Source of the DNA: an uncultured Staphylococcaceae bacterium
Lineage (GTDB): Bacteria; Bacillota_I; Bacilli_A; ML615J-28; CAG-313
DNA length: 64,000 bases
Direction of reading: 5' to 3'
NCBI GenBank assembly: GCA_964507405.1
Contig: CAZDPJ010000003.1
Coordinates: 1,729 to 65,728, forward strand
In this document: positions 36,872 to 58,119 of the stretch, in pieces
Layout of the letters: every line of letters begins with the position of its first letter
Numbering within the stretch: the stretch's first letter is position 1
The notes under the pieces: model-generated
Seen by the model: only the letters and a program-made list of their open reading frames with translations
Told to the model about the DNA's origin: nothing
Databases searched by the model: none
Position numbers and translations under genes: made by a program

Positions 36872-37771
36872 ATGGAAAATCTTGTCACTGAATATACATC
36901 TTATTTAGCAAGTGAAAAAATGAAAAGTCAAAATACCATAAAGTCATATCAAAGTGATTTACTAAATTATTTATATTATTTACAAAATGTAAAAAATATT
37001 GATGATATTAAAAATACTAATACATCAGATGTTTTAGATTATCTTACATATTTAAAAAAACTAGGATATTCTTCAACTTCAAGTTCGAGAAGTTTAAGTA
37101 CTTTAAAGTCTTTTTATAAGTTTTTAACCCTTGAACATTATATTAAACATAATCCAACGCTTACAATTAGTGCTCCTAAACTAGATAAAAAACTTCCAAC
37201 TGTGCTTTCAGTAGAAGAAGTACTAAAACTTTTAAATAGTTTAAATGATGATACACCATATAATGCAAGAAATAAAGCAATGATTGAAGTAATGTATGCG
37301 ACAGGACTTAGAGTAAGTGAACTTGTTAATCTAAAAATCAATCAATTACATTTGACAAGTAAAATGATTTCTACAACTGGTAAAGGAAGCAAAGAAAGAA
37401 TTGTTCCAATTAATGATTATGCGGCAAAGATACTTAGAGATTATATAGTTAAATATCGGGTTGAACTTGTTAAAAATAAAAAAGACAATAATTATTTATT
37501 CTTAAATAATCAAGGTGAGGCTTTATCAAGACAAAGTTTCTTTATTATATTAAAACGTCTTGCTAAAGAAGCTGGAATTGAAAAGGAAATTTCACCTCAT
37601 ACTTTAAGACATTCTTTCGCAACCCATTTACTTGAGGCAGGTACTGATTTAAGATATATTCAAGAAATGTTAGGACATGAAGATATATCAACAACCCAAA
37701 TTTATACCCACTTAAGTAAACAAAAAATTAAATCTGTTTATAATAAAGCACATCCAAGAGGAGATAAATAA
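36872..37771 (+). CDS. xerD: Site-specific tyrosine recombinase XerD (RipX-like)
   Basis: Catalytic set YATGLRVSEL, GKGSKER, HTLRHSFATH, LGH and TTQIYTH; adjacent to phosphopentomutase like B. subtilis ripX-drm. Confidence 0.9.
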   Translation: MENLVTEYTSYLASEKMKSQNTIKSYQSDLLNYLYYLQNVKNIDDIKNTNTSDVLDYLTYLKKLGYSSTSSSRSLSTLKSFYKFLTLEHYIKHNPTLTISAPKLDKKLPTVLSVEEVLKLLNSLNDDTPYNARNKAMIEVMYATGLRVSELVNLKINQLHLTSKMISTTGKGSKERIVPINDYAAKILRDYIVKYRVELVKNKKDNNYLFLNNQGEALSRQSFFIILKRLAKEAGIEKEISPHTLRHSFATHLLEAGTDLRYIQEMLGHEDISTTQIYTHLSKQKIKSVYNKAHPRGDK

Positions 37772-39917: not shown

Positions 39918-40666
39918 ATAGGCCTTTTTTTGCGTTTTTTAATCTAAAATGAATAAATATCGATTTGCATATTTAAATCAAAAATAAGCCTAAAATAGCT
40001 TCATCTTATATACTTTATATAATATTTAATAATATAACAATACATATAATTAATCTATATTAAAATAAAATATAAAGGCAAAACAAGCGTAAATTTTAAA
40101 AGATTAATTAACAAATGATTAATTAAACAATAAGAATTAAAAATACAAAATATCCTTTAATTTTAGTTTCAAATAAAAAATATAAAAAATTAGACGCTTT
40201 AGACTTGATAATAACCCTTCTGTGAGCGTCTGAAAAATAAAAAGATGAATAATTCTAATTAAACTTTTTAAATCAGGGCATAACATAAAATATATAATAA
40301 TTGGATATTAGAATTATTTAAAAAAATAAAATATAATAATTATATAAGCCTTCCTAAAAAAGATGAAATTTAAAAAGACGCATAAACACTAATTAAGCTA
40401 TAAAGACAAATAGTAAAAAAAGTTATATTCTTAATTAATAGTAATAGCCCTTTTTATAAAGAGCGTAATATAAAAAGTTGAATAGTTGTTAATTAAGCTA
40501 TTATAAAATAAGATCTTTATTTTAGTGATTGATAGGCCTTTCTAGAGAGGATGAAAATTAAAAAGATGAATAATTACCAATTCAAATTTTGGTTTGGTAG
40601 TTACTAATAAATAAAAATGCCTAGTAAAAGATGAAAGATAAAATACTTGATAATTAGTAATCCACA
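39918..40666 (+). repeat. Left array of degenerate ~55-bp polar repeats
   Basis: Clear copies start at 40211 (1-nt gap), 40344, 40444, 40532 and 40612; weaker copies at 39918 and ~40072. All are on + and share ATAR(C/G)CC, TGAAA, TAAAAAG, GAATAATT and TAATT(C/A)AA blocks in one register. Confidence 0.8.
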
Positions 40667-40730
40667 TTGTATTTGTGTATAAGTATATGGAAAACATACT
40701 AGTTATCCACAATCAAAAAACTTATCAACG
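40658..40730. promoter_or_regulatory. DnaA-box cluster
   Basis: TAATCCACA 40658-40666 (1 mismatch), TGTGTATAA 40674-40682 (TTATACACA on -), TTATCCACA 40703-40711 (perfect) and TTATCAACG 40722-40730 (2 mismatches), versus consensus TTATNCACA. Confidence 0.65.
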
Positions 40731-40778: not shown

Positions 40779-40806
40779 GGTTAACATAATATATATTATA
40801 GGAAGT
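40779..40806 (-). other. dif: dif site (XerCD chromosome dimer resolution site)
   Basis: Minus strand ACTTCCTATAATATATATTATGTTAACC (28 bp) differs at only 2-3 positions from the recalled B. subtilis (ACTTCCTAGAATATATATTATGTAAACT) and S. aureus dif sites. It lies exactly where gene orientation converges. Confidence 0.93.
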
Positions 40807-41105
40807 AAAACACAGATAAGTAAAACATCGAAAATAAGAGATTAAATGCTTCAAATCATTAAAATGGAGTATTTATTTGTCGAATTCTACTTATTTTATT
40901 AAATAAACTAACTCATTTTAATAATCATGACTATATTTAAAAAGCTAAAATATGCAGTATTTTTAAAACATAATCTTATACTGTTAATTACTCAGAATTA
41001 GATAGAAAATTCAAAATACCCCTTTAAATCGCCTTTAGATTTAAAAATAATAAAACAAATGCATTTATTGGAATTTACTTCTTATTTTAAAGGTTATCTT
41101 TACAA

Positions 41106-41495
41106 TTTAAGTTAAATAATTATTCATTTATTAAATTTCATACGTTTAGAGTAGGGTTATAAACTACTAGTTATTAATATTATTGTAAAAGCTTATATTA
41201 GTAATTATGAATCTATTAAAATTCATGCGTTTAATGAAAGCTTATAATCTATTAATTATTAATAAATAAATAATCTAAATAATTGAATAGTAGTTATATA
41301 ATTAATATTATTTCAGAAGCTAATACTGTAGTTTATATATTTAATGTTTTAAAGTGCTAATCCATGTTAATTATAAATAATTAAATTTAAATTTAGTATA
41401 TTTTTATTTTAAACAATAAAAAAACCGGGATTTCTCCCAGTTTGAATTAGTAATTATTCGACTTTTTAATTTTCATCCGCTCACAGAACGGTTAT
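41106..41495 (-). repeat. Right array of degenerate ~55-bp polar repeats (inverted relative to left array)
   Basis: Minus-strand copies at 41495-41441, 41245-41191 and 41160-41106; weaker copies at 41336-41282 and starting 41097. Confidence 0.8.
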
Positions 41496-41500
41496 AAAGC

Positions 41501-42018
41501 CTATTTTTTCTTTTTAAATGAGTAGACAGTAAAAATTAATAATATTATGATTGGTATTATAAAATAAATTGTATTAAAAATAATACATGAATACCATGGT
41601 GCTGAATTACTTTGATCAGTAATCAATATGATAATTTCAATTATTGTTTTTATTAAAAAACTGGTTGTAACGAGTATTAAAGCACCTAATAATATAAATG
41701 GATGATGTTTCATCAATTTTACTACTTATTAGTAAATATGAAAATATAATTATTCCGATAAAACCAATAATTGCGATTATAATATCTAGTAAAAGTAACT
41801 TCTTCTTATTACTCGATATTTTTCTAAGTTGTAATAATTCATCTGAACTGATATTAAATAGATTACAAAGCATAATAATGTTATCAATATCAGGTAAACT
41901 TAAATTTGTTTCCAATTTTGATATAGTTTGACGTGAAAATATTTAGTTTATTTGCTAAATCTTCTTGAGTAAAATTATTTTGTTTTCTTAATTCTTTAAT
42001 TTTTTCACCGATTGTTAT
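41501..42018 (-). pseudogene. Decayed XRE-family HTH plus membrane-domain gene (start loss, frameshifts)
   Basis: RBS AGGAG is followed 7 nt later by ATA-ACA-ATC-GGT (likely ATG>ATA). Reads TIGEKIKELRKQNNFTQEDLANKLNI / frameshift / SRQTISKLETNLSLPD...FNISSDELL plus TM, then a second frame change into a small TM peptide (SAPWY). Confidence 0.75.
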
Positions 42019-42105
42019 ATTTAAACTCCTTTCGGGAATATTATATATCTTTATTTTAGAAAAATACATCAATTTTTGTTTATAATTACTATCTTTTTAG
42101 TTGCT

Positions 42106-42910: not shown

Positions 42911-43969
42911 TTATTTGTCATAATTTGTACCAAAGATGTTTTTAGGATCATCCTCATTAACAAGTTTAACCCATCTAGCACTTCTTCCCTTTCCTAATGG
43001 TTTAATATAGTTTTCATCTCTTAATTTAAATAATGCTCTGTTAATAGTGGAGTCACTGACATCAGGATGATAAATTCTAATATCTTCTTTTGAAAATGTT
43101 GAAGGAAGTGAAGCAATTGTTTGTTCAATACCATCACTTTTATGCATTCGTTTATCAAATGATTGTTCTTTTAATATATTTGTTAGCTCTTTATATGAAC
43201 TAATTATACAATCAAATACTAATTCCACAATACCGTTAAGTTGAAGATGGCTTGTTGGAAAATTAATAAAACTAAGTCTAATTTCATTATCAAAGTTTTC
43301 TTTATTTTTTAAGTATATTTCAAAAAAACCAATATATTTAAAAACATCAATTTCGGATCTTAATAACATATAATAGAGTTCAAGTAACCCCGCAAGTTCA
43401 TTATGGTCAGAAAATGGTTTCATTAATACGGTTTCTAAGTATGTAATTACTGCTAAATATATTTTTTCATATGTTTTTTTCGTAAAATTAATATGATAAT
43501 TTTCTAACATTTTTTCATATGATAATCTGATACTAATTGGTTTAGTTACTTTATTTCTAACTCCTAATAAATCATCATAGTTTCGATTAGTAAATTTATG
43601 AGAATTTTTTCCAAAAATACGGTTTAAGTAAGTTAAAATATCACTGCCATTAAATGTATGATTTAAGGCATCTTTTTGAATAATTCTAAGTACTTCTTTT
43701 AATTCAACAAGTATTTTTTCTTCTTGATTATTTGGATTAGATCCTTTGGTTATTATTAATCGCATCCTATTTTCGGAAATATTTAAATTTAATATTGAGG
43801 CTAGAATAAAAGTTTCTCTTTCTATATTTTGTTCAATTAAATAAAATTTAGAATCACCTAGTTCTTTATCAAAAGTTTGATTTTGTCCGATGTATTTATA
43901 TACTTCTAACATTTTATTTAAAATATTTGATGGAAGCATGTAATTTGTTAAAGCTTCATAATTATTCAT
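42911..43969 (-). CDS. Fic-like protein with degenerate catalytic motif and C-terminal winged helix
   Basis: KPFSDHNELAG occupies the HPFxDGNGRxxR position; the C-terminus 'FSKEDIRIYHPDVSDSTINRALFKLRDENYIKPLGKGRSARW' is wHTH-like. Confidence 0.65.
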   Translation of the reverse strand: MNNYEALTNYMLPSNILNKMLEVYKYIGQNQTFDKELGDSKFYLIEQNIERETFILASILNLNISENRMRLIITKGSNPNNQEEKILVELKEVLRIIQKDALNHTFNGSDILTYLNRIFGKNSHKFTNRNYDDLLGVRNKVTKPISIRLSYEKMLENYHINFTKKTYEKIYLAVITYLETVLMKPFSDHNELAGLLELYYMLLRSEIDVFKYIGFFEIYLKNKENFDNEIRLSFINFPTSHLQLNGIVELVFDCIISSYKELTNILKEQSFDKRMHKSDGIEQTIASLPSTFSKEDIRIYHPDVSDSTINRALFKLRDENYIKPLGKGRSARWVKLVNEDDPKNIFGTNYDK

Positions 43970-44041
43970 AATATCACCATTAATAATTATAACCCAAAAA
44001 CTAAAAAAAAGCAATAAAAAAGTAAACAGAAAACCTGTTTA

Positions 44042-46336: not shown

Positions 46337-46923
46337 TTATGTTTCCTCTTATTTATAAAATAAAAAATACGATCTAAAATAATAGCCATTGTTGAAGATA
46401 TAATTGTACAAAGAATCATTAATGATATTAAAGAAATAGAATTATTTCCTTTATACATGGATCTAATACCAAGAATTGTAGTTGGAAATATGGTCAAAGA
46501 ACTAACATTCATAATGATAAAAGTAATCATACTTCTTGATGGTGATGATTTATTTGGATTTAATTTTTGTAATTCTTCAAAGGCTTTTAAGCCAAGTGGG
46601 GTTGCGGCTGAACCTAATCCTAATAAATTAGCAATTATATTTGAACAAATATATTCAAGCGCAAGATCATCTTCTTTTAATTCGGGATATAATTTTAATA
46701 AAGGTTTTTTAAAGATTTTAGTTAAATTTTTGATTAATCCGCTTTCTATTGCAATATTGAAAACACCACCCCAAAATAAAATAATTAAGCTAACATTAAA
46801 AAATATTTCAAAAGCTTCATTTGTTGAATTCATAATGATATTTCCCATATCATTTATCTTTCCTGTAAAGATACTAATAATTATACCAACGATTAATAAA
46901 GCGTTCCAAACATAATTAATCAT
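46333..46923 (-). CDS. spmA: Spore maturation protein A
   Basis: MINYVW, ANLLGLGSAATPLGLKAFEELQ and PTTILGIR. Confidence 0.95.
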   Translation of the reverse strand: MINYVWNALLIVGIIISIFTGKINDMGNIIMNSTNEAFEIFFNVSLIILFWGGVFNIAIESGLIKNLTKIFKKPLLKLYPELKEDDLALEYICSNIIANLLGLGSAATPLGLKAFEELQKLNPNKSSPSRSMITFIIMNVSSLTIFPTTILGIRSMYKGNNSISLISLMILCTIISSTMAIILDRIFYFINKRKHK

Positions 46924-46958
46924 CTTTTTTTCCTTTCAAACGCTCTGAGAACGGTTTT
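46904..46958 (-). repeat. Dispersed 55-bp repeat copy overlapping dacB end and spmA start
   Basis: AAAACCGTTC TCAGAGCGTT TGAAAGGAAA AAAGATGATT AATTA; 34 of the first 45 positions match the 41495 copy (hand count). Confidence 0.7.
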
Positions 46959-47836
46959 ATGACACTAATTTCATCAAAATATGAAGTAAAGCGTTTATTT
47001 TTAGTAAATAATGAATTATAAAAATATTGATGTACTTGCCAATCATTAGGACAATTAAATGTAACAACTACATAATATTCATCTTTATATTGATATAAAG
47101 TAACAAGTGTCCTTCCTGCTTTTTTAGTATATCCTGTTTTTCCACCAATTACATAATCATAAGTTTGAACAAGTTTATGTTTATGATGATAATACAAAGT
47201 ATGATTTTCAAGTTTTACAATTTTATTTTTAGTGCTTATTATTTCTAAAAATTTTTTATTTTTAATTCCATATGTTACAAGTTTTGCCATATCAAGTGCT
47301 GTTGTATAATTCTCATTTTCATCATCAAGTCCTGAAGGATTATTAAAGATTGAATTTGACATATTTACTTTTTTTGCTAGTTTGTTCATTAAATAAATAA
47401 AGTCTTGTTCATTATTCGTTAGACTAAGAGATAGTGCTTTTGCTGCATCATTTCCAGAGTTTAACATCAATCCATATAATAGGTCTTCTACTTTTATAAA
47501 ATCATTTACTTCTAAATATATTTTAGATCCTTCACAATTAATCATTTCCTTGGTTATTAAAACATACTCTTCGATATTAAAAAAATCAAGCACCGTAAGG
47601 CATGTCAATATTTTAGTAATTGAGGCCGGGAGTAGTGCTTGATTTATATTTTTTTGATAAAGTATTTCGAAATTAGAACAATTCATAAATATACATGCAT
47701 CAGCGTCTACAACATTTAAGTTATTTGTATTTACTATATTAATGTCATTACTAGTATAAACTTTAACTCTAATAATTGAGATTGCAAGCATGAGATATGC
47801 TAGTAATGATAAAATAAGTAATCCTTTAGTTTTCAA
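46916..47836 (-). CDS. dacB: D-alanyl-D-alanine carboxypeptidase (PBP5*-like)
   Basis: SxxK (ASITK), SGN (SGND) and KTG (GKTG); upstream of spmAB. Probable TTG start at 47836 after GGTGA. Confidence 0.9.
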   Translation of the reverse strand: MKTKGLLILSLLAYLMLAISIIRVKVYTSNDINIVNTNNLNVVDADACIFMNCSNFEILYQKNINQALLPASITKILTCLTVLDFFNIEEYVLITKEMINCEGSKIYLEVNDFIKVEDLLYGLMLNSGNDAAKALSLSLTNNEQDFIYLMNKLAKKVNMSNSIFNNPSGLDDENENYTTALDMAKLVTYGIKNKKFLEIISTKNKIVKLENHTLYYHHKHKLVQTYDYVIGGKTGYTKKAGRTLVTLYQYKDEYYVVVTFNCPNDWQVHQYFYNSLFTKNKRFTSYFDEISVIKPFSERLKGKKDD

Positions 47837-47892
47837 GCTTATCACCAATACATTATATTCATTAATGTTAAAAATATAATTAATTTTTAGAA

Positions 47893-47947
47893 TTTGAATG
47901 GATAAATTATCATAAAATTATTTTTCAAACGCTTATAGAAAAGTTTT
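47893..47947 (-). repeat. Dispersed 55-bp repeat copy
   Basis: AAAACTTTTC TATAAGCGTT TGAAAAATAA TTTTATGATA ATTTATCCAT TCAAA, starting 4 nt after the MATE stop codon. Confidence 0.65.
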
Positions 47948-47951
47948 ATTC

Positions 47952-49325
47952 TTATATTTTATACACTACATTCTTTATAACTTTATTCAACATTAATAAC
48001 GAAATTAAACAAGTAAGAAACTCAGATATCGGGAATGTCCACCATATTAAGTTAACAACATTAGTAGATTTTGAAAATAAAATAGAAATAGGAAAAACAA
48101 ATATAATTAGTCTTAATAACGCAGTAAAAAGAGGCTTAAACGGAAACCTTAATGCTTGAAAAACACCTTGGATTGCGACACTACACCCCATAAAGACATA
48201 ACCAAGAGAGGCTATTCTTGTTGCTTTTTCACAAACATCAATTAGTTCTACTGTTGATGAATTAGATATTGCGAATAACATAGATAAAGGTCTAGCTATT
48301 ATTTCAAAAATAAGGGTAATTATTATACATATAATAATTGAATCAAAAATCCCATATTTTATACATTCTAGTGACCTTGCTTTATTTTTTAATCCATAGT
48401 TAAAGGATAAAATGGTAATAATGGTATTAGATAATCCAAAACAGGAAAATAGAGCTATTTGTTGAATCTTATAATAGATTCCAAATGAACCAACTAAAAT
48501 AGTTGAATCTACTTTTGTACTTCCTAATATAATATTCATTCCAGCCATCATAATTGATAATAAACCCTGCATTAAAGCAGCTGAAATTCCTATTGAATAA
48601 ATTGCTTTAATAACATTAATATCTGGTTTAATATATTTAATATTACCTTTTATTTCCGAATTTTTAAAATAATGAAAATACATTGCAATAAACATTGAAA
48701 CGAATTGCCCAAGAACCGTCGCAATCGCAGCTCCTTCTACTTTTAAATTTAGAGGAAAAATAAAAATATAATCAAAGATAACATTTATTATAGCTCCAGA
48801 GATTTGAGAAATAGTTGAATAAAGTGATTTTCCAGTTGCTTGTAAAAATCTTTCATAAATCGTAAATCCTATTGAACCTAGACTGAAAATACAACAAATT
48901 GATAGATAGTTACTTCCCATACTTACTACTTTTTCGTTATTTGTAAATAAAGATATAAATGGTTTTGATAGAAATATACCAAAAATTAAAAAGACTAAAT
49001 AAATAATGATTCCTAGAAATATCCCATTTCCAGCTATTTTATTTACTTTTTCATTGTTTTTTTCACCTAAACTTTTTGATAATAATGAATTTAAACCAAC
49101 TCCGGTTCCAACACCAATTGCAATAATTAGAATTTGAATTGGAAAAGCATAAGTTAATGCTTCATTAGCAAGAGCTCCTACATCCTTAATATTGGCAACA
49201 AATATACTATCAACTACATTATATAAAGCTTGTAAAACCATTGAAATAATCATTGGTATTCCTATTTTTAATAATAGTTTTTTTATTTTTTCAGTTGCCA
49301 TAATATTTAATTTAACTTCTTCCAT
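47952..49325 (-). CDS. MATE family efflux transporter
   Basis: PMIISMVLQALYNVVDSIFV, FLQATGK, INVIFDYIFI and EGAAIATVLGQ; RBS AAGGAG before ATG 49325. Confidence 0.94.
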   Translation of the reverse strand: MEEVKLNIMATEKIKKLLLKIGIPMIISMVLQALYNVVDSIFVANIKDVGALANEALTYAFPIQILIIAIGVGTGVGLNSLLSKSLGEKNNEKVNKIAGNGIFLGIIIYLVFLIFGIFLSKPFISLFTNNEKVVSMGSNYLSICCIFSLGSIGFTIYERFLQATGKSLYSTISQISGAIINVIFDYIFIFPLNLKVEGAAIATVLGQFVSMFIAMYFHYFKNSEIKGNIKYIKPDINVIKAIYSIGISAALMQGLLSIMMAGMNIILGSTKVDSTILVGSFGIYYKIQQIALFSCFGLSNTIITILSFNYGLKNKARSLECIKYGIFDSIIICIIITLIFEIIARPLSMLFAISNSSTVELIDVCEKATRIASLGYVFMGCSVAIQGVFQALRFPFKPLFTALLRLIIFVFPISILFSKSTNVVNLIWWTFPISEFLTCLISLLMLNKVIKNVVYKI

Positions 49326-49344
49326 GTTTTTCTCCTTTTCTTTC

Positions 49345-49442
49345 AAAAAATAAAAAAACGTGCAAATCCAGGACAACTGGACTTACACATTTCTGTTACA
49401 CATTGACTTTATTATTTTATCATAATTTTTAATTTTTTGCAA
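49345..49442 (-). promoter_or_regulatory. Sigma-A promoter plus terminator-containing leader (candidate attenuator) of MATE gene
   Basis: TTGCAA-N17-TAAAAT (49442-49414), then a 12-bp stem GTGTAAGTCCAG/CTGGATTTGCAC with a U-run before the RBS. Confidence 0.6.
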
Positions 49443-49452
49443 ATTTTTAAAA

Positions 49453-50352
49453 TTAATTTTTTATAAAATCTCTAATAATTTTTTTAACTTCTTCAATTGT
49501 ATTATTAAAATTTTCGCGATCAATATCAATTATTTTAATGTTATTATGACGCTTAAACCATGTTATTTGCCTTTTAGCAAGATGTCTTGTATTTTTCTTA
49601 ATTTCATCTATACATGCTAATAGTTCTTGTTCACCATTTAAATATGGTATTAATTCTTTATAACCTATTGCTAGTGATGCTGTTTTACTAAGTTTTAATT
49701 TACTTAAGGCTTTTACTTCTTCAATTAATCCTTCTTCTATCATTAAATCTACTCTTTTATTTAAGTTATCATATAGTTTACTACGTTCTTCATTTAAAAA
49801 GATGATTAATGGTTCATAAACAAGGGTATTATTAAATTCATTTATTAATGAATTGGTACTTGCAAGTTCAATTGCTCTTAAAACTCTTTTACGATTATTA
49901 GGATGAATTTTAATTGCGGCATCTGTATTTAAAGATTTTAAAATCTGATGTAATTCTTCATTCGATAAATTAGCATATTGCTCTTCAGTACTATTGTTTC
50001 TACCTTCTTTTGTAAAATTATAATCATAAATGATACTATCAATATACAGACCACTACCACCAACAATTAGAGGAATTTTATTTTGTTTAGTAAATTCATT
50101 GATTAGATTTCTTACATTTTTTTGATATTCAGCTACAGAGTATTCCTCAGTCGGAAGTTTTATATCAAATAAATGATGAGGAATGTTTTCTTTTTCTTCT
50201 TCTTTTATTTTTGCTGTCAAAATATCCATACCTTTATATACTTGATATGCATCACCATTGATGATTTCTGTATTTAACATTTCCGCAATTTTGATTGATA
50301 ATTTTGTTTTGCCTGTTCCTGTTGGTCCTGTAATAATTATTACTTTTTCCAT
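49453..50352 (-). CDS. miaA: tRNA dimethylallyltransferase
   Basis: GPTGTGKT, DAYQVYKGMDI, GGSGLY, HPNN...RAIE and AKRQITWF. Confidence 0.96.
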   Translation of the reverse strand: MEKVIIITGPTGTGKTKLSIKIAEMLNTEIINGDAYQVYKGMDILTAKIKEEEKENIPHHLFDIKLPTEEYSVAEYQKNVRNLINEFTKQNKIPLIVGGSGLYIDSIIYDYNFTKEGRNNSTEEQYANLSNEELHQILKSLNTDAAIKIHPNNRKRVLRAIELASTNSLINEFNNTLVYEPLIIFLNEERSKLYDNLNKRVDLMIEEGLIEEVKALSKLKLSKTASLAIGYKELIPYLNGEQELLACIDEIKKNTRHLAKRQITWFKRHNNIKIIDIDRENFNNTIEEVKKIIRDFIKN

Positions 50353-52172
50353 TACATCACCCTTTTAAACATTTTTTCAAGTTCATATTTAGAAAATTGA
50401 ATAATGGTAGGTCTTCCATGAGGACAAGTGTAAGGCATTTGACAAGTATCAAGTTTTTCCATTAATGATTTTACTTCTTCTATAGTTATTTCCATATTAG
50501 CCTTAATTGATTTTTTACAACTTAATTTTTTAGCAAGACTATCTTGCATGATTTGTTTATTAACCATTTTATTATTTAATAAATACTCAATAATATCTCT
50601 TATATATGATTCTTCTTGACCTTTAGGTATCCAGAAAGGGATGCTTCTAACAAGAATTACATTATTACCAAATTGTTCAACTTTAATATGCATTCTTTCT
50701 AATTCGTTTGCTTTTTCCATAATTAGATTTATTTGACTAATATTATATTCTAGTTTTAATGGAATTAGTAACTCGTATGCTAAATTATTGCCTTCTTGGT
50801 ATAATTTCTTTTTAATGGTTTCATACATGTATCTTTCCATCCCCGCATGTTGATCTATTAAATATAATGTATTATTATTTTCCATTATTAAATATGTTTT
50901 ATTAAATTGACCAATATAATTAAGACTTTTAAAGAAATCATTTTCTTTTTCTTTTAGTAGGGGCTCTTCATATAATTCTTCTTCATTTAGATTATCATTA
51001 TAAATTTCATTTTTTTCTTCTTTTTTTACCTCTTTATTATACGGTTCAAACATGTCCCAGAGATTATCAAGATTATTTTCTACCTTATTTTTAGTTTCAT
51101 CTTCTGTAAAACGGGTTACAGGATCAAATAGAGTGGTTTTTGGTTCAATAACTTCATCAGCAGTTTGACTTGTTATTAACTCTTTTTTATTAAGAGATGA
51201 ATAAATAGTTTTCGAAATTAGTTGTTTTAATCGATATTCATCGGTAAATTTAATCTCAAGTTTAGAGGGATGAATATTAACATCTAATAAACCATAATCA
51301 CAAGTTATTTTTAGAATCGTTATCGGATACTTACCAATTGGAAGGATTGTTTGATAAGCATCACATACACTATATACTAGTGATTGGTTTTTAATAATTC
51401 TTCCATTGGCAATTAAAATGATGCCATTTTTATTTGAACGATTAATTGCATTACTTGTAGTATATCCTTCAATATGATATAGATCATTATCACCATTAAA
51501 TTCGATAATATTTTTTGCAACTTCTTTTCCAAATGTTTCACTTATGATTAATTCAATATTATCTTTGCCATCGGTTTGTAATAAAGTTTTATTATTATTA
51601 CTTAATGAAAAAGCAATATTGGGATAGGCAATGGCAAATTTATTAACAATTGATGTAATATTAGCAAGTTCAGTTGAATCAGAACTTAGATGCTTGAAGC
51701 GAGCTGGGGTATTATAGAATAAATCTTCAACCTCAATCTTAGTTCCAGATGTCATCGCACATGGAGTTTCATTTATAATTTTTCCATTTTTATAAGTATA
51801 ACTATAACCATTTAAATCAGTAGTTCCTGAAGATATTTTAAATAGAGAAACACTAGCAATTGAAGGCAGTGCTTCACCTCTAAAACCAAGGGATGAAATA
51901 TTAAATAAATCAGTTGATGTTTTAATTTTACTAGTTGCATTTCTTTTTAAGGCAATTGGTATTTCTTCTTTATCAATGCCATAACCATTATCAGTTATAG
52001 TTATTTTTTTTAAGCCTGAATCTATTAGTTCTATTTTTATTGATGAGGCTTGTGCATCGATACTATTTTCAACTAATTCTTTGACGACACTTGCGGGGCG
52101 TTCAACTACTTCTCCAGCCGCGATTAAATTTTTTAGTTCTTCAGATAATTCAATAATATGATTTTTAATCAT
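50352..52172 (-). CDS. mutL: DNA mismatch repair endonuclease MutL
   Basis: IAAGEVVERPASVVKELVENSID, GFRGEAL, DQHAGMER and CPHGRP. Confidence 0.97.
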   Translation of the reverse strand: MIKNHIIELSEELKNLIAAGEVVERPASVVKELVENSIDAQASSIKIELIDSGLKKITITDNGYGIDKEEIPIALKRNATSKIKTSTDLFNISSLGFRGEALPSIASVSLFKISSGTTDLNGYSYTYKNGKIINETPCAMTSGTKIEVEDLFYNTPARFKHLSSDSTELANITSIVNKFAIAYPNIAFSLSNNNKTLLQTDGKDNIELIISETFGKEVAKNIIEFNGDNDLYHIEGYTTSNAINRSNKNGIILIANGRIIKNQSLVYSVCDAYQTILPIGKYPITILKITCDYGLLDVNIHPSKLEIKFTDEYRLKQLISKTIYSSLNKKELITSQTADEVIEPKTTLFDPVTRFTEDETKNKVENNLDNLWDMFEPYNKEVKKEEKNEIYNDNLNEEELYEEPLLKEKENDFFKSLNYIGQFNKTYLIMENNNTLYLIDQHAGMERYMYETIKKKLYQEGNNLAYELLIPLKLEYNISQINLIMEKANELERMHIKVEQFGNNVILVRSIPFWIPKGQEESYIRDIIEYLLNNKMVNKQIMQDSLAKKLSCKKSIKANMEITIEEVKSLMEKLDTCQMPYTCPHGRPTIIQFSKYELEKMFKRVM

Positions 52173-54741
52173 TATTCTTCACCTTTTCTTTTAAATTAGA
52201 TAAAAATACAAGGGCTTCTAGTGGTTTCATATTATCTACATCGGCATTTAATAATTCATCTTTTAGTTCGATAAGTTCTTTACTTGTTTTATCAATAATA
52301 ATTGGTTTTTGATAATTATTAATAGATAAGGTTTCACTATCATATTTACTATTTTTCTCAAGTTTATCTAAAATATCTTTTGCACGAAGGGTAATTTCTA
52401 ATGGAATTTTAGCAAGACTTGCAACATTAATTCCGTAACTTTGATCGCTTGGTCCTTCAACTACTTTATGTAAGAAAACAAGGTCAGAAAGATCATTACC
52501 AGCTGTTGCTTCAACATGTACATTCTTTAAAAAAGGAAGGCTTTGACTAAGATTAGTTAATTCATGATAGTGGGTAGAAAATAATGTTTTACAACCTATA
52601 TTATTATGGAAATATTCAATAATGGCTTGAGCAAGACTCATTCCATCAAAAGTTGCGGTACCACGACCAACTTCGTCAAAGATGACAAGACTTCTTTCCG
52701 TTGCATTTTGAATAGCATCATTTACTTCCAGCATTTCTACCATAAATGTAGATTCTCCACTCATAATATTATCACTTGAACCAATTCTTGTAAATATTTG
52801 ATCAAAGACTGGTAATTTAGCTTGTTTTGCGGGGACAAAAGATCCAATTTGAGCCATTATGGCAATTAAAGCATTTTGTCGCATAAAGGTGCTTTTACCA
52901 CTCATATTAGGACCAGTGATTAAAAGAATTTTGGCATCATTATATAATACTAAATCATTTGGAACAAATTCATTGTTATTTACTGCCTCAATTACAGGGT
53001 GTCTTCCTTCTTTTACAATCATCTCATCATACATTGAGAATTCAGGTCTTACATAATTATTGCTTTTCGCAACATCACTTAGAGAAATTAACATGTCAAT
53101 TTCTGAAATTTTAGTTGCTAAAATTTGTAATTTAGAAGTATTTTCTTTACATATTTCTCTTAATTCATTAAATAGTTTAATTTCTAGTTCTATCGCCATT
53201 TCGCCAGATCTTAAAATTAAAGCTTCTCTTTCTTTTAATTCTTGTGTAATAAATCTTTCAGAATTAGATGTTGTTTGTTTTCTAATATAACCATATTCAT
53301 CTTTTATTTGATCTAAATATGATCTAGTAACTTCAATATAATATCCAAATACACGATTATATCCAACTTTTAATGTCTTAATTCCGGTTTTTTCTCTTTC
53401 TCTTAATTCAAGATTTAGTAAGTAATCTTTATTTGAAGATTCCACATTTCTAATATTATCTAATTCATCATTATATCCGTTTTTGATTACCCCTCCATCT
53501 TTAAGGATAAATCCTGCATTCTCATCAATTGCTTTAAATAAAGTTTTATGTAATTCTTCAAAATCATCAATTTCAATCCCTCTTTTATTTAAAGAATGTC
53601 CTTTCATTTTTGAAAGAATTAATTTTATATTGGGTAGTACTCCTAAGGATATACGAAGTTGTAATAAATCTTTTGGTGTTAAATTACCATAACTAATTCT
53701 ACCAACAATTCGTTCTAAGTCATATATTTCTTGTAATTGTTTTTTTAAATCATTTGTGTGTAAATAGTTCTTTTGTAATTCTTCAATGATGTCTAATCTT
53801 TCATTTATTTTCTTTAAATCCACTAGTGGATATAGTAAATTTTTCTTTAAGTATCTAGATCCCATTGCGGTTTGACAATGATCAAGGACTACAAATAAAT
53901 TATTTTTAAATCGATTTCCTTTATTTGTTTCAACTATTTCTAGATTTCTAATAGTACTTTCATTTAATCTTAAATAATCTTTATTTGTATATTCTTCAAA
54001 TGGTTTTAAATGAACAAGGACTCTCTTTTGGGTTTGAATTACATAATGTAATAATCTTTTAGCATTTTTACTTAAATCACTATTTAAATTACATAGTAGT
54101 GGGAGTAAATATTCATCTATATCTAAATCATCACTTAATGATGGTAAGATACCATAGTTTTTAGATAAGGTTTGAATTACTACTTTATTAAAATTAGTTG
54201 GAACAACTATTTCTTTAATTGATAACTTCAATAATTCACCATAAACTAGATCAATTGAATTAAGGACTGTAATTTTAGCCTCACCAGTTGATAATTCAAT
54301 ATAACTAAAAATAAAGTTATTATCTATTTTATCTAAACAACCTAAATAACTATTATTTTTTTCATCTAGATATTCAGTATCGACATTGGTACCTGGTGTA
54401 ACAATTTTTACGATATCACGTTTAACTAGTTTTTGTCCTTTAGGTTCTTCTAATTGTTCAACTATAGCTACTTTATAACCTTTCATTGATAGTTTTTCAA
54501 TATATCCGTTAACCGCATGATGAGGTACACCACACATTGGTACGCGGTCATTATTAGTTCCCGCATCTCGTCCTGTTAATACAATTTCTAATTCTCTACT
54601 TGCGACAAGAGCATCATTAAAGAACATTTCATAAAAGTCACCAAGTCTAAAGAAAACTAAAGTATCCGGATATTGTTCTTTAATTTCTAGATATTGTCTC
54701 ATCATTGGTGTGTATAAATTTTTGTCTATATTTTCGTACAT
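52165..54741 (-). CDS. mutS: DNA mismatch repair protein MutS
   Basis: TPMMRQY, RLGDFYEMF, TGPNMSGKST, STFMVEM, DEVGRGT and SYGINVA. Confidence 0.98.
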   Translation of the reverse strand: MYENIDKNLYTPMMRQYLEIKEQYPDTLVFFRLGDFYEMFFNDALVASRELEIVLTGRDAGTNNDRVPMCGVPHHAVNGYIEKLSMKGYKVAIVEQLEEPKGQKLVKRDIVKIVTPGTNVDTEYLDEKNNSYLGCLDKIDNNFIFSYIELSTGEAKITVLNSIDLVYGELLKLSIKEIVVPTNFNKVVIQTLSKNYGILPSLSDDLDIDEYLLPLLCNLNSDLSKNAKRLLHYVIQTQKRVLVHLKPFEEYTNKDYLRLNESTIRNLEIVETNKGNRFKNNLFVVLDHCQTAMGSRYLKKNLLYPLVDLKKINERLDIIEELQKNYLHTNDLKKQLQEIYDLERIVGRISYGNLTPKDLLQLRISLGVLPNIKLILSKMKGHSLNKRGIEIDDFEELHKTLFKAIDENAGFILKDGGVIKNGYNDELDNIRNVESSNKDYLLNLELREREKTGIKTLKVGYNRVFGYYIEVTRSYLDQIKDEYGYIRKQTTSNSERFITQELKEREALILRSGEMAIELEIKLFNELREICKENTSKLQILATKISEIDMLISLSDVAKSNNYVRPEFSMYDEMIVKEGRHPVIEAVNNNEFVPNDLVLYNDAKILLITGPNMSGKSTFMRQNALIAIMAQIGSFVPAKQAKLPVFDQIFTRIGSSDNIMSGESTFMVEMLEVNDAIQNATERSLVIFDEVGRGTATFDGMSLAQAIIEYFHNNIGCKTLFSTHYHELTNLSQSLPFLKNVHVEATAGNDLSDLVFLHKVVEGPSDQSYGINVASLAKIPLEITLRAKDILDKLEKNSKYDSETLSINNYQKPIIIDKTSKELIELKDELLNADVDNMKPLEALVFLSNLKEKVKNND

Positions 54742-54812
54742 AATAATCCACCTTTACAAAAATAGTTAAAGATATTTTATCACATTTTGTAAAAAAACGT
54801 ACAAAAAAAGCG

Positions 54813-54867
54813 TTTGAGATGAAAAATTATTCATTTTTTCAAACTCAAACGCTCTCAGAACGGTTTT
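54813..54867 (-). repeat. Dispersed 55-bp repeat copy forming a terminator-like hairpin
   Basis: AAAACCGTTC TGAGAGCGTT TGAGTTTGAA AAAATGAATA ATTTTTCATC TCAAA; overlaps the ECF S-component stop codon. Confidence 0.7.
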
Positions 54868-55564
54868 ATTTTTTAATGTTAGATAAAGTATAACTTGCGG
54901 GACTACCGATTAATCCACCAACAATAGCTTCAAAAATGCCATTGGTACCAACAATACCTAAAATTACAGTCAATAATACTTGATAATCCATCCCCGCAAT
55001 CAAGGCATATTGTTTACCCCATAAAAAGTAAGTTCCAAGTAATACTAAAAAAGTATTAGTTAAACTACCTAGTATTCCACCGATAAAATATATAAAAGCA
55101 TCTTTTCTTTTTAAACTATTCTTTGTAATTTCCGTAAAATATGTACCAAATAAAATAATTGTTAATTTATTTTCTTTAATTTTCTTTAAGGAATTAGATA
55201 CTAATCCAGAAACAACACCTGTTAAAATTCTTGGAACAAAACAAATAACTAAGGGCCAGTAACTACGATATTCATTTGTATATGCATTCCAAGGAGTAAA
55301 TAAGATTGCTGAAGCATTGGCAGAATCAATAAATGTCCACCAAATAAAACTAAATAAGCCAGCAAATAACCCAAGAATTGCGCCTGACTTAATGCCATAA
55401 GTCATACCAGCAATAATAACAGGAACCATTGCTAATGTTGCAACGACCGGACCAATTTGAATTGAACCAAGGAAAGGCACAAAACATACAATTGCTTCTA
55501 AAGCAATTAACATAGCTAGTCTTGTTAAGTTTTTGATTTGCATTGATCTTGTATTTTTTCTCAT
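54866..55564 (-). CDS. ECF transporter S component (PanT-like)
   Basis: PFLGSIQIGPVVATLAMVPVII, PRILTG, GSLTNTFLVL and GTNGIFEA. Confidence 0.82.
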   Translation of the reverse strand: MRKNTRSMQIKNLTRLAMLIALEAIVCFVPFLGSIQIGPVVATLAMVPVIIAGMTYGIKSGAILGLFAGLFSFIWWTFIDSANASAILFTPWNAYTNEYRSYWPLVICFVPRILTGVVSGLVSNSLKKIKENKLTIILFGTYFTEITKNSLKRKDAFIYFIGGILGSLTNTFLVLLGTYFLWGKQYALIAGMDYQVLLTVILGIVGTNGIFEAIVGGLIGSPASYTLSNIKK

Positions 55565-55571
55565 ATTCCAC

Positions 55572-56846
55572 CTATTCAAGCATTTCAAATTCATAACCTA
55601 AAATACAAACAGTATCACCATGTTTAACTCCTTGTTTTTTAAGTTCTGTTTCAACACCCATTTTACGAAGTTTTTGTGCAAAAATTCTTACATTACTTTC
55701 ATTATTGAAGTCAGTACGATCAAATAATTTTTTAATGGCTGGACCTTCAACATTGAAAACTCCAGAATCATCTTTTCTAATTGTAAATTCTTCACTTGGA
55801 GGAGTAAATTTATATTCAACTACTCCTTCTGAAATTTCTTCTAATTTTTCATTTTTCTTTACTTCATCTAATACATCAGCTATTTTATAAAGTACTTCGT
55901 CAAGATTTTGTTTGGTTATTGCGGAAATTGGAATAATATCTTTGTTAATTTCTTTTTCAAACTTCTTAAGATTTTCTTCACTTCCCGTTAAATCCATTTT
56001 ATTAGCAACAATAATTTCAGAACGCTTTAATAATTTATGGTCATATTCACCTAATTCTTTTCGTATAGCTAAATAATCTTCAACTGGATTTCTTCCTTCA
56101 ATTCCACTCATGTCAACGATATGAACAATTACTCTTGTTCTTTCAATATGTTTTAAAAATTGAATTCCAAGTCCAGCTCCTAAATGAGCTCCTTCAATTA
56201 GTCCTGGTAAATCAGCCATAATAAAGCTTCTACCATCTTTTACTCCAACAACTCCTAAATGAGGATTTAATGTTGTAAAATGATAATCAGCAATTTTTGG
56301 TGTTGCTTTAGAGACCATAGTAATTAGTGTACTTTTTCCGACACTTGGAAATCCAACAAGCCCTACATCAGCAAGAACTTTTAAATCTAATTGTAAGGTT
56401 AGTTCTTCTCCAGGCTCACCTTTTTCACAAATTTGAGGTGCAGTGTTTCTAGAATTAGCAAATGCGGCATTACCTTTTCCACCGCGTCCACCATGGGCAA
56501 CGATTACTTCTTGACCATGTTTTGTTATATCACCGATAATTGTACCAGTTTCAGCATTTATAATTGTAGTTCCAATTGGTACTTTAGCATATGCATTTTC
56601 ACCATCATGGCCAAACATATCTTTTTTCATACCTTTTTCACCACTAGTAGCTTTAATTTTTCTAGTGAATCTAAAGTCTAAAAGGGTAGTAAGTCCTTCT
56701 TCACCAACAAAGATAACATCGCCTCCACGGCCACCTTTACCACCAGATGGGCCACCCATATTAGCATATTTCTCATGTCTAAATGCAACAACACCATCTC
56801 CACCATTTCCAGCTTTTACTAGTACTTTTACACTATCAACAAACAT
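55572..56846 (-). CDS. obgE: GTPase ObgE
   Basis: GNGGDG...GGPSGG, GFPSVGKST, YHFTTL, DLPGLIEGA and NKMD. Confidence 0.98.
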   Translation of the reverse strand: MFVDSVKVLVKAGNGGDGVVAFRHEKYANMGGPSGGKGGRGGDVIFVGEEGLTTLLDFRFTRKIKATSGEKGMKKDMFGHDGENAYAKVPIGTTIINAETGTIIGDITKHGQEVIVAHGGRGGKGNAAFANSRNTAPQICEKGEPGEELTLQLDLKVLADVGLVGFPSVGKSTLITMVSKATPKIADYHFTTLNPHLGVVGVKDGRSFIMADLPGLIEGAHLGAGLGIQFLKHIERTRVIVHIVDMSGIEGRNPVEDYLAIRKELGEYDHKLLKRSEIIVANKMDLTGSEENLKKFEKEINKDIIPISAITKQNLDEVLYKIADVLDEVKKNEKLEEISEGVVEYKFTPPSEEFTIRKDDSGVFNVEGPAIKKLFDRTDFNNESNVRIFAQKLRKMGVETELKKQGVKHGDTVCILGYEFEMLE

Positions 56847-57934: not shown

Positions 57935-58015
57935 GCATATATTATACTCTATTTTGCTATTTTTTGCAAGAAATATAATAATTTTTTCAGTGCATTAATT
58001 TTAAAAGAAAAATTA

Positions 58016-58070
58016 ATAACCGTTCTAGAATCGTTTGAAATAAAAAAGTTTAGTAATTATTAATTTCAAA
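58016..58070 (+). repeat. Dispersed 55-bp repeat copy (opposite polarity to neighbours)
   Basis: ATAACCGTTC TAGAATCGTT TGAAATAAAA AAGTTTAGTA ATTATTAATT TCAAA. Confidence 0.7.
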
Positions 58071-58119
58071 TTTTAAAATTTATCAAAAAGAGCCCTCTTT
58101 ATAGAGGACTCAGGATTAT

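Follow-up and report, generated by a model that had tools for sequence, protein, structure and literature searches.

What is a short palindromic repeat doing between, and in places within, the genes beside a replication terminus? The question is raised by a 64,000-nucleotide stretch (hereafter the window; C3:1729-65728, contig CAZDPJ010000003.1) from the 1.51-Mb draft assembly of an uncultured Staphylococcaceae bacterium of the GTDB group CAG-313, one of the uncultured Bacilli of the human gut (GCA_964507405.1; 70 contigs, 27% G+C, 86% complete, standard genetic code), in which copies of a ~55-nt repeat form two arrays and recur singly over the following kilobases. An earlier reading of the letters alone (the sequence-only reading) had placed the dispersed copies right at stop codons, all in the polarity of the right-hand array, and had offered two models for them: replichore-polar sites resembling outlying Ter sites, or an element akin to repetitive extragenic palindromic (REP) sequences or miniature inverted-repeat transposable elements (MITEs) that lands at gene 3' ends in the sense orientation. 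We find that the repeat family is confined to ~25-47 kb of the dif site, almost entirely on one replichore. We propose, at what we judge to be even chances, that its members are cis-elements similar to REPs and bacterial interspersed mosaic elements (BIMEs), whose home is the dif island and whose dispersed copies arose by local seeding and have been retained by selection for the local uses they serve.

Confinement of the repeat family to the neighborhood of dif

The GC skew of the window switches from positive to negative at ~40-41.5 kb, the neighboring genes converge there, and a dif site lies at the same place (Table 1); together these features identify the region as the replication terminus and bear out the replichore assignment of the sequence-only reading. 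The dif sequence recurs, identical or with one mismatch, in the repeat clusters of 10 relatives, and the gene order around it is common to the whole family. On one side are genes for an XerD-like protein, DeoB and a Hydrolase_4 protein, followed by dif with its arrays; on the other side come, in order, PHP, Fic/wHTH (winged helix-turn-helix), PAP2, RluB, SpmB, SpmA, DacB, MiaA, MutL, MutS, Obg, L27, Prp, L21 and PpdK, with FolC farther out.

A search of the window with the 21-nt core of the repeat (AACCGTTCTNNGAGCGTTTGA), allowing up to 3 mismatches, recovered 6 matches against 0.00 expected from shuffled sequence. A covariance model of sequence alone, trained on 51 intergenic copies from 12 genomes, was run over the whole window with filters off; it returned exactly 11 significant copies and nothing above noise in positions 1-40000. 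Two of the three dispersed copies cited in the sequence-only reading were in the training alignment, and the one at 46893-46959 lay outside the training set. When the whole assembly was searched with nhmmer profiles and the core pattern, every significant match fell on C3, at 40.2-64.5 kb in window coordinates, the outermost being a copy in folC just past the end of the window; none was found elsewhere in the 1.5 Mb.

The same restriction is seen in related genomes. The core occurs in 24 of 41 of them; it is present throughout the genus and in most members of the family but nearly absent from the sister family, and a reversed control pattern gives counts near zero. In the relatives examined closely the matches gather on a single contig around dif, and in the near-complete ones the covariance matches on that contig amount to 14 of 16 (G010), 10 of 10 (G015), 6 of 7 (G016) and 10 of 12 (G005). 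They lie within 47 kb of dif at most, nearly all on the side running from PHP to PpdK. In 185,579 species genomes, exact matches to the core were limited to this group and about ten scattered singletons, the latter roughly as many as chance would give.

Two genomes inform on where the family resides. In G012, with gene order unchanged, only the two dif-flanking copies are left, which indicates that the dispersed copies are dispensable and makes the non-coding dif island look like the home of the family. G029, a member of the sister family, has five copies of a unit (ATAAGCCTTnTnTGAGAAGATTATCTTTTTAAAGATGGTTAATTATC) that is diverged but whose homology is clear; all are on one strand, distributed to both sides of its dif. 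The dif-flanking repeat is accordingly order-wide, with its sequence changing between families. As a separate observation, the dif island of G029 also contains TTATCCACTTCT motifs arranged as an inverted pair.

Table 1. Repeat copies and associated features of the window (window coordinates; scores from the covariance model)
Feature	Position	Strand	Score (bits)	Context
dif site ACTTCCTATAATATATATTATGTTAACC (28 bp)	40779-40806	-		Center of the repeat distribution; GC-skew switch
Left array, four copies (40210-40594)	40210-40281; 40343-40396; 40443-40512; 40532-40594	+	54.7; 21.0; 14.5; 46.8
Right array, two copies (41090-41246)	41090-41161; 41175-41246	-	39.9; 18.2
Right array, further copy	41438-41496	-	54.9	5 nt past the TAG (41503-41501) of a 71-aa open reading frame; own terminator (41443-41422) follows
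Dispersed copy 1	46893-46959	-	43.3	Last 14 codons of dacB (stop TAA 46918-46916) with spmA ribosome-binding site AAAGGA and ATG (46923-46921)
Dispersed copy 2	47875-47948	-	35.5	Degenerate, 3 core mismatches; 4 nt past the MATE stop (TAA 47954-47952), ahead of the dacB promoter region
MATE transporter gene	47952-49376	-		PF01554; species-specific insertion between miaA and dacB
Decayed copy in mutL	51086-51118	-	7.6 (alone)	Coding region of the MutL linker; recognizable only through orthology
Dispersed copy 3	54802-54868	-	50.7	Full length; its TAA is the ECF-S stop (54868-54866); hairpin 54856-54806, then U-run; upstream of mutS (start 54741)
ECF transporter S-component gene	54866-55594	-		PF12822; stop codon inside dispersed copy 3
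Dispersed copy 4	58015-58085	+	46.3	Opposite polarity; between the ppdK terminator (58111-58090) and the L21 promoter and leader

The copies that had been reported on the minus strand at 46958, 47947 and 54867 are real, as is that at 41495, and the distances given for the latter and for the MATE and ECF-S stops are correct (Table 1). The Pfam assignments MatE, ECF_trnsprt and Peptidase_S11 for the transporters and DacB were likewise borne out. The copy at 46958 had been described as sitting at a stop codon; it is not intergenic but lies inside the end of dacB and carries the ribosome-binding site and start codon of spmA.

Polarity and association with stop codons

Right-array polarity holds for the three dispersed copies cited in the sequence-only reading, but that reading had not reported the strong plus-strand copy at 58015-58085, which is oriented oppositely. 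With 3 of 4 dispersed copies in right-array polarity (4 of 5 when the mutL relic is included), the bias is on its own not significant. The copy at 58015-58085 is antisense to its neighbors and points away from dif, and the copy upstream of the L21 gene is antisense in every relative that has one there (five of the six congeners, G015 and G016), as is a copy inside a leucine-rich-repeat gene. Within the genus the copies near dif converge on it and are sense-oriented. Six intergenic copies of G010, located on that same replichore beside co-directional genes, are antisense and point away from dif. Around dif itself, the copies of G010, G015, G016 and G029 are arranged as direct and not as inverted repeats. 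At the dacB/spmA junction the copy is sense in the genus but antisense in G010. Each junction thus has its own polarity, which is set neither by the replichore nor by transcription. The orientation common to most copies in the window could arise because a hairpin with a U-run facing the transcript is useful behind co-directional genes.

Among sense copies downstream of a gene across the relatives, 11 of 19 start between -3 and +5 nt from the stop, corresponding to 6 of 13 independent junction contexts against ~2 expected by a rough estimate from spacer lengths. Adjacency to stops is accordingly beyond chance only modestly. The element frequently supplies or abuts a stop codon, presumably because of its own 5' A-TAA-ACC; the ECF-S stop is the TAA within ATAAAACC of the copy there. 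The antisense copies of G010 abut stops with their other end, so placed that the inner hairpin and T-run follow directly after the stop on the gene-sense strand. At the dacB/spmA junction of G010 (C14, ~124.7 kb) the antisense copy provides the Shine-Dalgarno sequence and start of spmA through the reverse complement of the core (GAGGAGGGTTTATG); the sense core (AACCCTCCT) resembles an anti-Shine-Dalgarno sequence.

Conservation, signs of local copying, and spacing

Pairwise comparison of genomes within the genus shows saturation at 4-fold degenerate sites (identity 0.35-0.45, ~500 sites per pair). For the repeat, identity between orthologous copies stays at 0.78-0.95 upstream of mutS, 0.64-0.80 close to dif and 0.60-0.69 upstream of the L21 gene. 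Such high identity despite saturation indicates that the copies are held by selection or by continuing homogenization. The same orthologous junctions are occupied across genera, and copies within the genus cluster by orthologous site. The six copies of G010 are mutual nearest neighbors (0.78-0.88) and lie beside lineage-specific gene insertions; judged from these sequences, they may be regarded as signs of local copying, as may the species-specific copy at 47948.

Gaps between copies are more even than random placement would produce. In G003 they span 2.6-4.2 kb, with a coefficient of variation (CV) of 0.16 (P<1e-4), and G001, G006, G015 and the first ten copies of G010 give P ~0.01-0.02 with means near 3.5 kb; P is 0.07 in the window genome and 0.34 in G010 with its last outlier, the test being post hoc and the genomes of one genus sharing sites. 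A mean spacing of ~3.5 kb is found in three genera despite different inserted genes (G003:C1 55-80 kb, G010:C14 107-140 kb, G015:C6 41-75 kb).

Anatomy of the unit

Comparison of the copies reveals an asymmetric palindrome of 55-72 nt, of which the previously described 55-bp repeat is the better-kept part of ~70 nt. Its parts are, in order, a 5' arm (AACCSTTCTNNGAGCGTTTGA), an A-run, a center of the form GAAT-AATTA-ATTC, an optional 3' arm (TCAAACGCT) often carrying a T-run and, at the very end of certain copies, a GGGTT pairing with the AACCC of the 5' side. Of 58 copies, 17 have the complement of the 5' end at +60 to +64, where ~7 would be expected. Full-length copies fold at -22 to -35 kcal/mol (best -34.9 kcal/mol), and many copies keep the 5' arm only. 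Positions that are invariant or nearly so (A-ACC, T, A, TGA, T-AA-T) fall partly within and next to the central AATTA, and the conserved blocks would probably also bind a putative factor.

No copy has a match in Rfam, either at the gathering score or at E<=1. Comparison by eye with dif and Xer half-sites found only TAACC in common, and a similar comparison with LexA, cre, Fur, Spo0A and CodY boxes gave no convincing resemblance.

Divergent fates of the individual copies

The copy at 54868 presents the features of an intrinsic terminator, namely a hairpin and a direct U-run (U7) downstream of the stop. Its fold energy is -22.4 kcal/mol (z -5.63), with 0 of 200 shuffles as good. Orthologous copies are found upstream of mutS in the genus, in G017 and in G010, whatever gene precedes, and in G015 and G016, which have no copy there, ordinary intrinsic terminators are seen in its place. 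Hence, we infer that this copy is a working terminator of the ECF-S transcript that would insulate mutSL.

The copy at 46959 is of a different kind. It encodes the last 14 residues of DacB (IKPFSERLKGKKDD*), an orthologous copy lies in the dacB-spmA overlap in 7 of 7 genus genomes, and the RNA folds no better than shuffles (z -0.39). It appears to have been absorbed into coding and translation-start sequence, contributing the C-terminal tail of DacB as well as the ribosome-binding site and start of spmA.

The copy at 47948 is the most degenerate (z -0.26; nearest family member at 0.69 identity) and is species-specific. The six congeners lack both the MATE gene and the copy at this position; their miaA-dacB spacer has an ordinary terminator and, after it, the same dacB promoter box. 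MATE orthologs elsewhere, including one with 72% identity in a sister-family genome, have no repeat after them, which indicates that the copy arose in place; transfer of gene and repeat as a unit, in the manner of an attC-like cassette, was rejected on the same ground. That the best homolog of the MATE protein is this sister-family one, against 67% identity for a congener's at another locus, suggests from the sequence relationships that the gene may have been gained by horizontal transfer.

The copy at 58015 shows no fold signal on either strand. In the mutL linker, congeners have a copy of 22-38 bits at the same codons (TVPTAFEFKK...LWDMF) as the decayed one of the window. Two further coding-sequence matches deserve mention. 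A repeat-like stretch inside folC (C3:66165-66225, ~440-500 nt past the window end), translated as RAFEIKY/TAEIKKM, has orthologs in G003, G005 and G015. An in-frame insertion was rejected as its origin, there being no indel relative to a homolog without the similarity. In miaA (49453-50352), at ~49868, codons for the motif KRVLRAIE mimic the core with 4 mismatches, in several genomes as well, and this match was treated as a false positive.

Weighing the explanations

In the REP/BIME-like explanation, the dif arrays would be the source of the dispersed copies, which would have arisen through local copying or conversion without a transposase belonging to the element and been retained where useful. 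The copy at 54868 would end the ECF-S transcript ahead of mutS, that at 46959 would have been taken up as the DacB tail and the spmA translation start, and that at 47948 would be a decaying species-specific copy that replaced the ordinary terminator of miaA when the MATE gene was inserted. Proximity to stops would stem from the 5' A-TAA-ACC together with a terminator-like position in a compact genome. This retains part of the second model of the sequence-only reading, namely a palindromic repeat at gene ends whose 5' TAA often serves as or abuts a stop, but the family is not genome-wide, sense orientation is no rule, and neither of the mobility partners which that reading had proposed to look for was found. 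The Y1 transposase of REPs (RAYT; PF01797) is absent from this genome (G000) and from all six congeners, being present in 3 of 25 relatives, and no insertion sequence (IS) with matching ends was found in the 86%-complete assembly, nor does any copy adjoin a transposase.

Several observations weigh against the REP/BIME-like explanation. Apart from the missing RAYT and IS, no clean pair of empty and filled sites was found, the sole species-specific copy having come with a gene insertion. Why the family should be confined to dif throughout the order is not accounted for by a selfish or terminator repeat, which also leaves unexplained both the regular ~3.5-kb spacing and the fact that several copies keeping the series lie in coding sequence (mutL, folC, dacB). 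As to structure, RNAalifold gave no consensus structure for the 51 intergenic copies, covariation was not significant by permutation for the inner stem (p=0.063) or for the terminal stem (p=0.48, with low power as the 5' ends are nearly identical), and just 1 of the 3 cited copies folds better than shuffled sequence. Furthermore, most of the conserved positions have no conserved pairing partner, which points to recognition of sequence and not of structure.

A second explanation, which we regard as possible but distinctly less probable than the first, is that the copies are a series of binding sites marking the terminus domain. A putative DNA-binding factor would read the A-ACC, TGAAA and GAnT-AAtTA blocks, with sites stacked beside dif, spaced ~3.5 kb apart over the final 25-47 kb of one replichore, and placed in coding sequence where there is no spacer. 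Its role might be like that of matS/MatP or XerD/XDS, in SMC unloading, decatenation or Xer/FtsK control, with terminator and ribosome-binding uses secondary. Such a series would account for confinement to dif in every genome checked, for the retention of only the dif-flanking copies in G012, for the even spacing, for conservation of sequence and not pairing, and for the preservation of the nucleotide sequence of the in-gene copies of mutL, folC and dacB. It would likewise fit the diverged homologous repeat at the dif of G029, as expected if site and protein co-evolve, and the purifying selection on the L21-upstream copy, which has no fold signal and lies downstream of ppdK's own terminator. 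Against it, there is no candidate protein: the neighboring Fic-wHTH gene (42911-44014), considered as the source of the binding protein by co-occurrence, proved uninformative, being present in 41 of 41 genomes tested, with the diverged repeat also found in the sister family. In addition, the spacing test is post hoc and weak in the window genome and in G010 with its last copy, the dispersed copies are dispensable in G012, orientation differs between sites and genera, and lineage-specific bursts and degenerate copies are more like a repeat than a site set. The two explanations are not mutually exclusive, and we rank the REP/BIME-like one first and the binding-site series second. A shade more tentative than the latter is the broader proposal of a terminus-marking system in this order of gut Bacilli, in which a putative protein would read a co-evolving ~55-nt cis-element present at dif and repeated at ~3.5-kb intervals.

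The remaining alternatives fare less well. Polar fork barriers, the first model of the sequence-only reading, would make the dispersed copies outlying Ter sites, in reserve behind a fork trap formed by two inverted arrays. Although the arrays of the genus converge on dif and 3 of the 4 dispersed copies share right-array polarity, this model is disfavored by the opposite copy at 58015, conserved in the relatives with a copy at that junction, by the six G010 copies pointing away from dif, by the direct arrays of G010, G015, G016 and G029, and by the presence of outliers on one side only. Moreover, neither RTP nor Tus (PF02334, PF05472) was detected in the assembly, with positive controls in B. 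subtilis and E. coli. Given polarity set junction by junction and the absence of these proteins, the Ter reading is not supported, and we consider it the most improbable of all. It is also unlikely, if less extremely so, that the copies act as a sense-strand structured RNA (an attenuator, processing site or mRNA stabilizer), in which AACCGUUCU would compete with CUCAAACGCU for pairing to AGAGCGUUUGAG. Such alternative pairings are visible in the sequence, some stems have a G-U wobble on the sense strand only, and most copies of the genus are sense-oriented; however, the structural tests above and the lack of Rfam matches tell against it, shuffled sequence folds just as well as two of the three cited copies, and there are antisense and array copies where there is no obvious transcript. 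A comparably low probability attaches to neutral wreckage of an extinct MITE surviving near the terminus by chance. Degenerate copies (47948 and the mutL relic) and the lack of any transposase in the genome or genus would suit this idea, but orthologous copies remain near consensus despite saturated 4-fold sites, the same confinement is repeated in each of five closely checked genera, with a diverged form flanking dif in the sister family.

Relationship to known repeats and terminus systems

In the literature we found no description of such a repeat, and assignment to REP/REPIN, MITE, Ter or Rfam families fails in each case on at least one defining feature. REPs and BIMEs (REPINs, Proteobacteria) are alike in being short imperfect palindromes, single or clustered, with lineage-specific copy sets. 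They are situated just past stops, as are 11 of the 19 sense copies here, with several other copies inside coding regions; host proteins bind them, and some act as terminators or mRNA-end structures, as proposed here for the copy at 54868. However, REPs are present in hundreds of copies chromosome-wide and are tied to the RAYT (Y1) transposase, whereas here ~10-16 copies lie within ~25-47 kb of dif, no Y1 enzyme was found, and copies also occur inside coding sequences. The Correia elements of Neisseria and the RUP and BOX MITEs of Streptococcus are comparable as non-autonomous inverted repeats lying at gene junctions, where they have come to serve as terminators, promoters or processing sites. 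They are genome-wide and have matching IS partners, neither of which is seen here, and they have recognizable target duplications, whereas the present family offers no clean empty and filled pair for scoring one. Rickettsia palindromic elements provide a parallel for a palindrome tolerated in frame within genes, as here in the DacB tail, the MutL linker and FolC, but they are clear genome-wide insertions, unlike the indel-free FolC copy.

Among terminus systems, opposed site groups like those of Ter/RTP (B. subtilis) and Ter/Tus (E. coli) are seen in this one genus only, and here polarity is not conserved, the sites are one-sided and the genome has neither protein. The matS/MatP system of E. 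coli and the XerD/XDS system of B. subtilis use small sets of sequence-specific sites restricted to the terminus, some of them in genes (PMC11894783). The repeat shares this restriction to the terminus region. It differs from matS, a 13-bp symmetric site spread over ~800 kb, in being asymmetric, ~55 nt long and limited to ~2% of the chromosome, mostly on one side of dif. XDS, for their part, resemble dif half-sites. Unlike both systems, the repeat has no known binding protein.

Other features of the locus

The XerD-like tyrosine recombinase gene (36872-37771, + strand; Phage_integrase and SAM_1 domains) lies 3 kb to the left of dif and is followed by deoB (phosphopentomutase). This linkage is kept in both families and matches the ripX-drm arrangement of B. 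subtilis. Within positions 40650-40715, ~70-120 bp from dif, are the DnaA-box-like motifs TTATCCACA (~40703) and TAATCCACA (~40659). Between the right array and the PHP gene (41501-42072, - strand) are open reading frame fragments in differing frames with no Pfam match, absent from that position in the congeners; from their sequence they look like a broken gene for a helix-turn-helix/XRE-type membrane protein. In the sister-family genome G037 (L058:15375-15674), a 111-nt stretch that includes dif is duplicated 189 nt upstream with 72% identity, and may be a remnant of an element integrated at dif. Lastly, short contigs of the assembly (C37, C38, C48, C52, C54, C55 and others) have 45-61% G+C against 27% for the assembly, and are probably binning contaminants.

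Implications

REP- and MITE-type repeats are as a rule dispersed genome-wide. One that is centered on dif and kept by selection within ~2% of the chromosome, in all five genera studied closely, would point to either a copying process tied to replication termination or dimer resolution, or a terminus organizer made up of a protein and its sites. The latter would be an organizer in relatives of the Firmicutes that have neither RTP, as is the case in this genome, nor a known MatP-type organizer. The dispersed copies would also illustrate the exaptation of a non-coding repeat, with one copy serving as a terminator and another as the C-terminal tail of a protein, and with the ribosome-binding site of spmA supplied by a copy in either orientation, sense in the genus and antisense in G010.

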